Below the pieces are notes generated by a model. It was not told the DNA's origin and made no database searches. It was given only the letters and a program-made list of their open reading frames with translations. A stretch of 37,063 nt of DNA from Escherichia phage T7. Location of the stretch: the sequence record OL964749.1. One strand, given 5' to 3'. Positions 9,356-9,506 of the stretch are shown here, piece after piece. Within the stretch, counting starts at the first letter, position 1. Every line of letters starts with the position of its first letter. The translations under genes and the position numbers were made by a program.

Positions 9356-9378
9356 TAATTGAACTCACTAAAGGGAGA
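9356..9378 (+). promoter_or_regulatory. T7 promoter phi3.8
   Basis: TAATTGAACTCACTAAAGGGAGA; +1 near 9373. Confidence 0.85.
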
Positions 9379-9506
9379 TGTGGAGAGGCACTGTAACAGC
9401 TGAGGGTAAACAGCATAACTTTCGTAGTAGAGATCTATTGGAAGTCGTTGCGTGGATTTATAGAACTAGGAGGGAATTGCATGGACAATTCGCACGATTC
9501 CGATAG
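9378..9506 (+). pseudogene. Remnant of gene 3.8 (HNH homing-endonuclease-like): only the C-terminal 42 codons remain, beginning at promoter position +6 with no Shine-Dalgarno
   Basis: [45 protein letters not shown] overlaps the gene 4 start as the 3.8 C-terminus does in T7; about 277 bp are missing relative to reference. Confidence 0.7.

Follow-up and report, generated by a model that had tools for sequence, protein, structure and literature searches.

Loss of DNA between short direct repeats is a classical event in phage T7, and double-strand breaks between the repeats stimulate such deletion (Studier et al. 1979; Kong & Masker 1994; both cited in PMC5630979). In the classical T7 cases (Studier 1979; Pierce 1991; Kong & Masker 1994), two copies of the repeat are present in the parental genome and one of them is kept, the deleted length equals the repeat spacing, and the region that is lost is dispensable.

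Deletions in T7 have also been generated by CiPGr, in which the phage is passaged on E. coli with SpCas9 and plasmid libraries (Yuan et al., NAR 2022; PMC9825161). Each spacer on the plasmids is paired with a repair template of 2 x 50 bp, designed for the removal of 100 bp (“cassette-100”) or of a whole gene (“cassette-gene”), and gene 3.8 was both targeted and detected as removable. Undesigned losses were found too and were ascribed partly to CRISPR-escape mutations; the main text names only three undesigned fragment losses in T7 (gp0.3-0.6, gp4.3-4.7 and gp19.5), and a loss in gene 3.8 is not one of them. The isolates called T7_100_tN were obtained after competition for fast killing (PMC9825161). 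As for the locus discussed here, the start site of promoter phi3.8 is located just upstream of the RNase III site R3.8, which has been linked to a lasting decrease of transcript levels across genes 3.8-6.5 (Jack et al. 2019).

We analysed a stretch of 37,063 bp (the window, meaning the whole stretch of DNA), which is a complete T7 genome with terminal repeats and has lost 277 bp where phi3.8 meets gene 3.8. Like the classical T7 repeat deletions, this one has two parental copies of which one is kept, a length equal to the repeat spacing and a dispensable target region. Unlike them, the break was presumably made by a programmed Cas9, and one of the repeat copies is the core of a T7 promoter (-3 to +6), which is regenerated intact. 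Very probably, the 277-bp loss is an undesigned short-direct-repeat deletion between two copies of AAAGGGAGA that was selected as a Cas9 escape in genome-reduced T7.

The junction between phi3.8 and gene 3.8

Compared with the T7 reference NC_001604, 277 bp (ref 11186-11462) are absent from the window directly 3' of the phi3.8 GGGAGA. The alignment stops at window 9378 (ref 11185) and restarts at ref 11463. A previous reading made from the letters of this DNA only (the sequence-only reading) had estimated that about 277 bp were missing after GGGAGA and had named alignment to the reference as the way to check it; by this alignment the length is exactly 277 bp.

The deletion is bounded exactly by two parental copies of the 9-bp AAAGGGAGA, at ref 11177-11185 and ref 11454-11462. 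One copy is kept in the window (9370-9378), and the deleted length is the spacing of the copies (277 bp = 11454 - 11177). With two flanking parental copies, one of them kept, and a length equal to their spacing, this is a short-direct-repeat deletion. The left copy covers positions -3 to +6 of phi3.8, while the right copy lies inside gene 3.8 and ends at codon 80, so the recombinant restores a complete promoter. The left alignment reaches window 9378 and the right alignment extends back to 9370; since the junction falls within the repeat, the breakpoint can be placed anywhere between promoter positions -3 and +6. A 103-bp relic of gene 3.8 separates the junction from the gene 4A start. The features of this region are as follows.

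8899..9354, + strand: gene 3.5 (lysozyme/amidase), the intact upstream neighbour; from the ORF list and the reference annotation
9356..9378, + strand: T7 RNA polymerase promoter phi3.8, -17 to +6, fully kept; identical to NC_001604 11163-11185
9370..9378, no strand: deletion junction, surviving 9-bp direct repeat AAAGGGAGA (promoter -3 to +6); from the alignment to NC_001604
9378..9506, + strand: gene 3.8 remnant, 42 codons plus stop, with no HNH domain and no usable RBS; from the ORF list and translation
9469..9475, + strand: Shine-Dalgarno (SD) AGGAGGG of gene 4A, unchanged; from the sequence
9481..11181, + strand: gene 4A primase/helicase, 566 codons, intact; from the ORF list and comparison with the reference

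An antisense ORF of 49 aa on the minus strand also spans the junction (9267-9416), and it was taken as a chance ORF.

Provenance of the genome and its ten deletions

The window is a laboratory genome-reduced T7 of the CiPGr series and not a natural isolate. It is 99.9% identical end to end to OL964748.1 (“Mutant Escherichia phage T7 clone T7_1t1”). A 38-nt query across the junction, each half of which is too short to seed alone, matches only OL964748.1 and OL964750.1 (T7_1t3) among 50,697 phage records. Both clones share with the window the exact 3.8 junction and its set of designed deletions; the window is a sibling of T7_1t1 and T7_1t3, probably one more clone of the series. Since the names of the clones and the pattern of the deletions agree with CiPGr, we assign the provenance to Yuan et al. 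2022. The exact junction is therefore not new: it was deposited in GenBank by a published study of genome reduction. An early clone from the same experiment, T7_10L, carries a full-length gene 3.8.

The siblings differ in length (37,063 bp for the window, 37,088 bp for T7_1t1 and 37,455 bp for T7_1t3). T7_1t1 has lost 75 bp between phi1.1A and phi1.1B (OL964748.1 ~4281-4297), whereas the window (4297-4356) keeps both promoters; a 17-bp overlap of the alignment blocks at this place is suggestive of recombination between the phi1.1A and phi1.1B copies. On the other hand, 100 bp of gene 5.3 are missing from the window and retained in T7_1t1.

All ten deletions in the window were mapped against NC_001604, and they are listed here with the homology at their junctions.

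Designed size: five deletions of exactly 100 bp; junction homology 0-3 bp
Designed size: gene 1.4 removed exactly, 156 bp; junction homology 0-3 bp
Designed size: gene 7.7, 369 bp; junction homology 0-3 bp
Odd size: 104 bp, ref 550-653, early promoter region (window 574-582); 9-bp repeat GTCAACCGG
Odd size: 277 bp, gene 3.8; 9-bp repeat
Odd size: 1480 bp, genes 0.3 to 0.7, ref 1257-2736 (window 1173-1185); 13-bp repeat AGGAAGTCGAGGA

Junction homology is thus only 0-3 bp in the deletions of designed size (7 of 10), while the remaining three, all of odd size, have 9, 9 and 13 bp. The 277-bp allele is a clean illustration of the repeat-mediated escapes that Cas9 counter-selection yields in T7, and a junction homology of 9-13 bp makes such escapes distinguishable from designed edits.

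Other promoters are touched as well. The 104-bp deletion should remove the E. coli promoter A2 (annotated at ref 626), and a designed 100-bp deletion cuts phi4.3 at +3 (window 11238-11265). At the latter junction, TAATACGACTCACTAAAGG is followed directly by CCACAC in place of the sequence ending in AAAGGAGACAC, so that the initially transcribed sequence is changed and gene 4.3 loses its start.

The gene 3.8 remnant and the leader of gene 4A

The translation of the remnant ORF is an exact C-terminal suffix of the 121-residue gp3.8 from residue 80, so that residues 80-121 remain and 79 N-terminal codons are lost, just as the sequence-only reading had it. The Pfam family HNH_3 (PF13392) matches the full gp3.8 at residues 14-56 (E = 3e-15), while the Pfam search with the 42-residue stub returned no family even at E <= 1. 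The whole HNH_3 domain lies in the deleted stretch, together with the gene 3.8 start codon and its RBS (GGAGG, with 5-nt spacing in the reference). Judged from the sequence, gene 3.8 is a null allele in which the HNH domain, start codon and RBS are gone. An AP2-type DNA-binding domain in the C-terminal part of gp3.8 was also considered; it has no Pfam match and is not claimed.

The ATG of the stub overlaps promoter position +6, as had been read from the letters, its A being +6 itself. The same reading had seen no Shine-Dalgarno before this ATG. In fact, an SD-like GGGAG abuts it, with a predicted anti-SD duplex of -7.2 kcal/mol; what stands is that no usable SD exists, the spacing being 0 nt compared with 5-8 nt at the real starts examined here. 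On RNA initiated at phi3.8, the ATG is only 5 nt from the 5' end. In the wild type, this AAAGGGAGATG context belongs to a Met codon inside gene 3.8, so no new start context has been created by the deletion. Given the 0-nt spacing and the internal position of AAAGGGAGATG in the wild type, the 42-codon stub is unlikely to be translated, which makes the “probably untranslated” of the sequence-only reading reasonable.

The knockout of gene 3.8 is real but ordinary, a laboratory-made, repeat-mediated loss of a dispensable gene. T7 is known not to need gene 3.8, which is homing-endonuclease-like, the mechanism is textbook T7 genetics and the junction has already been deposited, so the biological weight of the allele is low. 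The gene might matter in certain hosts: plasmid-expressed T7_3.8 hinders the GAPS4 defence system, and T7 without genes 2.8, 3.8 and 7.7 is outcompeted by the wild type only when GAPS4 is present (2025 preprint). The window is without genes 3.8 and 7.7 and keeps the gene 2.8 ORF. Going by this report, a minimal T7 chassis without 3.8 and 7.7 may be weaker on GAPS4 hosts.

Upstream of the remnant, window 9356-9378 is TAATTGAACTCACTAAAGGGAGA, the same as T7 phi3.8 from -17 to +6, and the +1 G at window 9373 corresponds to ref 11180, the start site annotated in the reference. The 23-bp phi3.8 element is intact in its bases, and the transcribed sequence differs only from +7 on. In the reference, the transcript is predicted to fold into a hairpin AAAGGGAGACC-ACAGC-GGUUUCCCUUU (ref 11177-11203), and in a longer context this hairpin is predicted to continue as a stem with interruptions, as is typical for T7 RNase III sites. 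The left repeat copy is the 5' arm of this strong 11-bp hairpin (predicted z = -3.3 in a 111-nt context), and the 3' arm is within the deleted 277 bp. The cleavage coordinate of R3.8 is reported to be 11203 (Dunn & Studier 1983). An R3.8 annotation was looked for in the GenBank records and is absent there, and the wild-type region matched no Rfam family at E <= 1, so R3.8 is without a curated model.

In the window, AAAGGGAGACC has no downstream GGUUUCCCUUU to pair with, and the predicted minimum-energy fold of the mutant phi3.8 leader leaves its first 15 nt without partners. The loss of both R3.8 and the RBS, proposed in the sequence-only reading, agrees with these results, as the 3' arm of the hairpin and the gene 3.8 RBS are both inside the deleted stretch. 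By its predicted pairing, R3.8 is lost both as an RNase III site and as the stem-loop at the 5' end of the phi3.8 transcripts. The same reading held that the phi3.8 transcript now runs almost directly into gene 4, and the leader from phi3.8 to gene 4A is indeed shortened from 385 nt in the reference to 108 nt in the window. The translation start region of gene 4A itself is unchanged: its SD (predicted anti-SD duplex -10.7 kcal/mol, 6-nt spacing) is kept, and its start region has the same predicted pairs in the mutant and wild-type contexts (-30.9 kcal/mol in both), neither of these folds being better than that of shuffled sequence.

With the R3.8 hairpin lost, read-through transcripts from upstream promoters would no longer be cleavable between genes 3.5 and 4. 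Since R3.8 goes together with a drop in transcripts (Jack et al. 2019), altered processing of gene 4 mRNA and altered levels of gene 4-6 mRNA are plausible, the direction not being predictable from sequence.

A second allele comes from the same experiment. T7_170S (MZ375266.1) has a designed cassette-gene allele of gene 3.8, in which about 293 bp are removed (ref ~11253-11545). Both phages are 3.8 knockouts with the gene 4A RBS preserved. However, the T7_170S allele keeps phi3.8, the R3.8 hairpin, the 3.8 RBS and the first 10 codons, whereas the window allele loses hairpin and RBS and, unlike T7_170S, retains 42 C-terminal codons. The 277-bp allele (hairpin lost) and the 293-bp allele (hairpin kept) are therefore a ready pair for work on R3.8 and gene 4-6 mRNA. 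In T7_170S (469-560), codons 1-10 of gene 3.8 are fused in frame to the region upstream of gene 4A, and its record annotates the primase/helicase with a 16-codon N-terminal extension.

Natural relatives offer another comparison. The teseptimaviruses N30 (424-480) and vB_EcoP_IME390 (420-476) lack an HNH gene between the lysozyme and primase genes; a phi3.8-type promoter and a GGGAGACCACAACGGTTTCCC stem-loop are kept in a 53-nt leader to gene 4, with no remnant of 3.8. The window shares with them the absence of an HNH gene ahead of gene 4. In contrast, it has lost the stem-loop, and its 108-nt leader is made of the 3.8 tail. As these 3.8-less phages retain promoter and stem-loop 53 nt before gene 4, the comparison suggests that phi3.8 and the hairpin form a leader module of gene 4, behind which gene 3.8 is a homing-endonuclease-type HNH insertion.

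Origin of the deletion and other changes in the genome

If the deletion is a Cas9 escape, Cas9 programmed against gene 3.8 would have cut between the AAAGGGAGA copies, the T7 exonuclease and annealing machinery would have resected the ends and allowed single-strand annealing at AAAGGGAGA, and the recombinant would have been selected because its protospacers were lost. Gene 3.8 offers 42 possible SpCas9 sites, of which 33 cut within the deleted interval; eight potential sites survive in the stub. A longer and closer repeat, the 10-bp ACTAAAGGGA at ref 11174-11183 and 11428-11437 (NC_001604), was not used, which would be explained by a cut between 11438 and 11453 or by stochastic choice. Wild-type gene 3.8 holds two partial copies of the phi3.8 core, one being ACTAAAGGGA and the other AAAGGGAGA.

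Replication slippage (copy-choice) between the AAAGGGAGA copies would give the same product as break-induced annealing without any Cas9 break, Cas9 having only enriched the deletion or the deletion having hitch-hiked. The hairpin of the first repeat copy may have helped, as the left repeat is the 5' arm of the strong 11-bp hairpin described above. Palindromes were reportedly found by Pierce, Kong and Masker in 1991 to stimulate repeat deletion in T7, which would count for slippage. The 104-bp deletion (ref 550-653) points the same way, since it is non-coding, maybe untargeted, and also has a 9-bp repeat. However, spontaneous loss at 9-bp repeats is rare when no break is made, the allele is confined to a Cas9-exposed lineage among the 50,697 records, and gene 3.8 belonged to the targeted, removable set, so we regard slippage as rather unlikely. 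A designed CiPGr deletion could be expected from the fact that gene 3.8 was a target and that the genome has other designed deletions, but the size is 277 bp and not 100 bp, the end points differ from those of the cassette-gene allele of T7_170S, and the deletion starts 39 bp upstream of gene 3.8. Moreover, a designed deletion would fall on a 9-bp repeat by chance with a probability of about 4e-6, and the junction homology of this allele is unlike the 0-3 bp of the designed-size deletions in the same genome; a designed origin is very improbable.

It is hardly credible that the junction stems from an error of assembly or sequencing, or that it reflects a natural ancestor lacking gene 3.8. Assemblers can in principle be misled by short repeats, but nine bases are far under read length, and the identical junction in two independently deposited sibling genomes makes an assembly artefact unlikely. 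Natural relatives without gene 3.8 do exist, yet their genomes have the hairpin and no remnant, while the window has a perfect 129-nt T7 3.8 tail, and T7_10L carries the full gene. Another rival explanation is positive selection on regulation: the loss of R3.8 and the shorter leader would raise or stabilise gene 4-6 mRNA and thereby aid the fast killing of the T7_100_t isolates. For this speak the drop over genes 3.8-6.5 that Jack et al. 2019 tie to R3.8, the presence of the allele in at least three isolates from the fast-killing competition, and the retention of R3.8 by the designed allele in other clones. But the three isolates are near-identical siblings and so may reflect a single hitch-hiking event, and the best CiPGr T7 mutant was beaten by the wild type in competition. 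In addition, N30 and IME390 keep the hairpin without gene 3.8, suggesting that the hairpin is useful, and phi3.8 transcripts could just as well become less stable without their 5' stem-loop, which leaves this kind of selection improbable. The broader idea that the 277-bp allele goes beyond passive escape, changing the processing or abundance of gene 4-6 transcripts and perhaps contributing to its enrichment, is doubtful too.

Besides the deletions, several smaller changes were observed. Gene 4A differs from the reference by K41T, A184S and G457V (window 9602, 10030 and 10850), all of which are absent from the early clone T7_10L. The K41T change (ref 11686 A>C) is located 2 nt from a TGG PAM, within the overlapping small gene 4.1, and has the look of a CRISPR escape by point mutation in an essential gene.

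Near the left end, about 43 extra bases are present just upstream of phiOL (window 365-423), where the motif ATTGTCTTTATTAATA(C/T)AA.. occurs in three tandem copies compared with one. The terminal repeat (window 1-230 and 36913-37063) is 150-151 bp compared with 160 bp, having lost 8 bp (CCTTCGGT) and 1 bp, and the repeat array at the left end has one extra unit of the TATCCTCCTAAAG type. The changes in the terminal repeat could be real or end-of-assembly noise. Finally, gene 7.3 (window ~17202) has a 12-bp in-frame deletion (ref ~19586-19597) between short GTTAAG repeats, and OL964748.1 annotates this gene at 288 nt compared with 300 nt.
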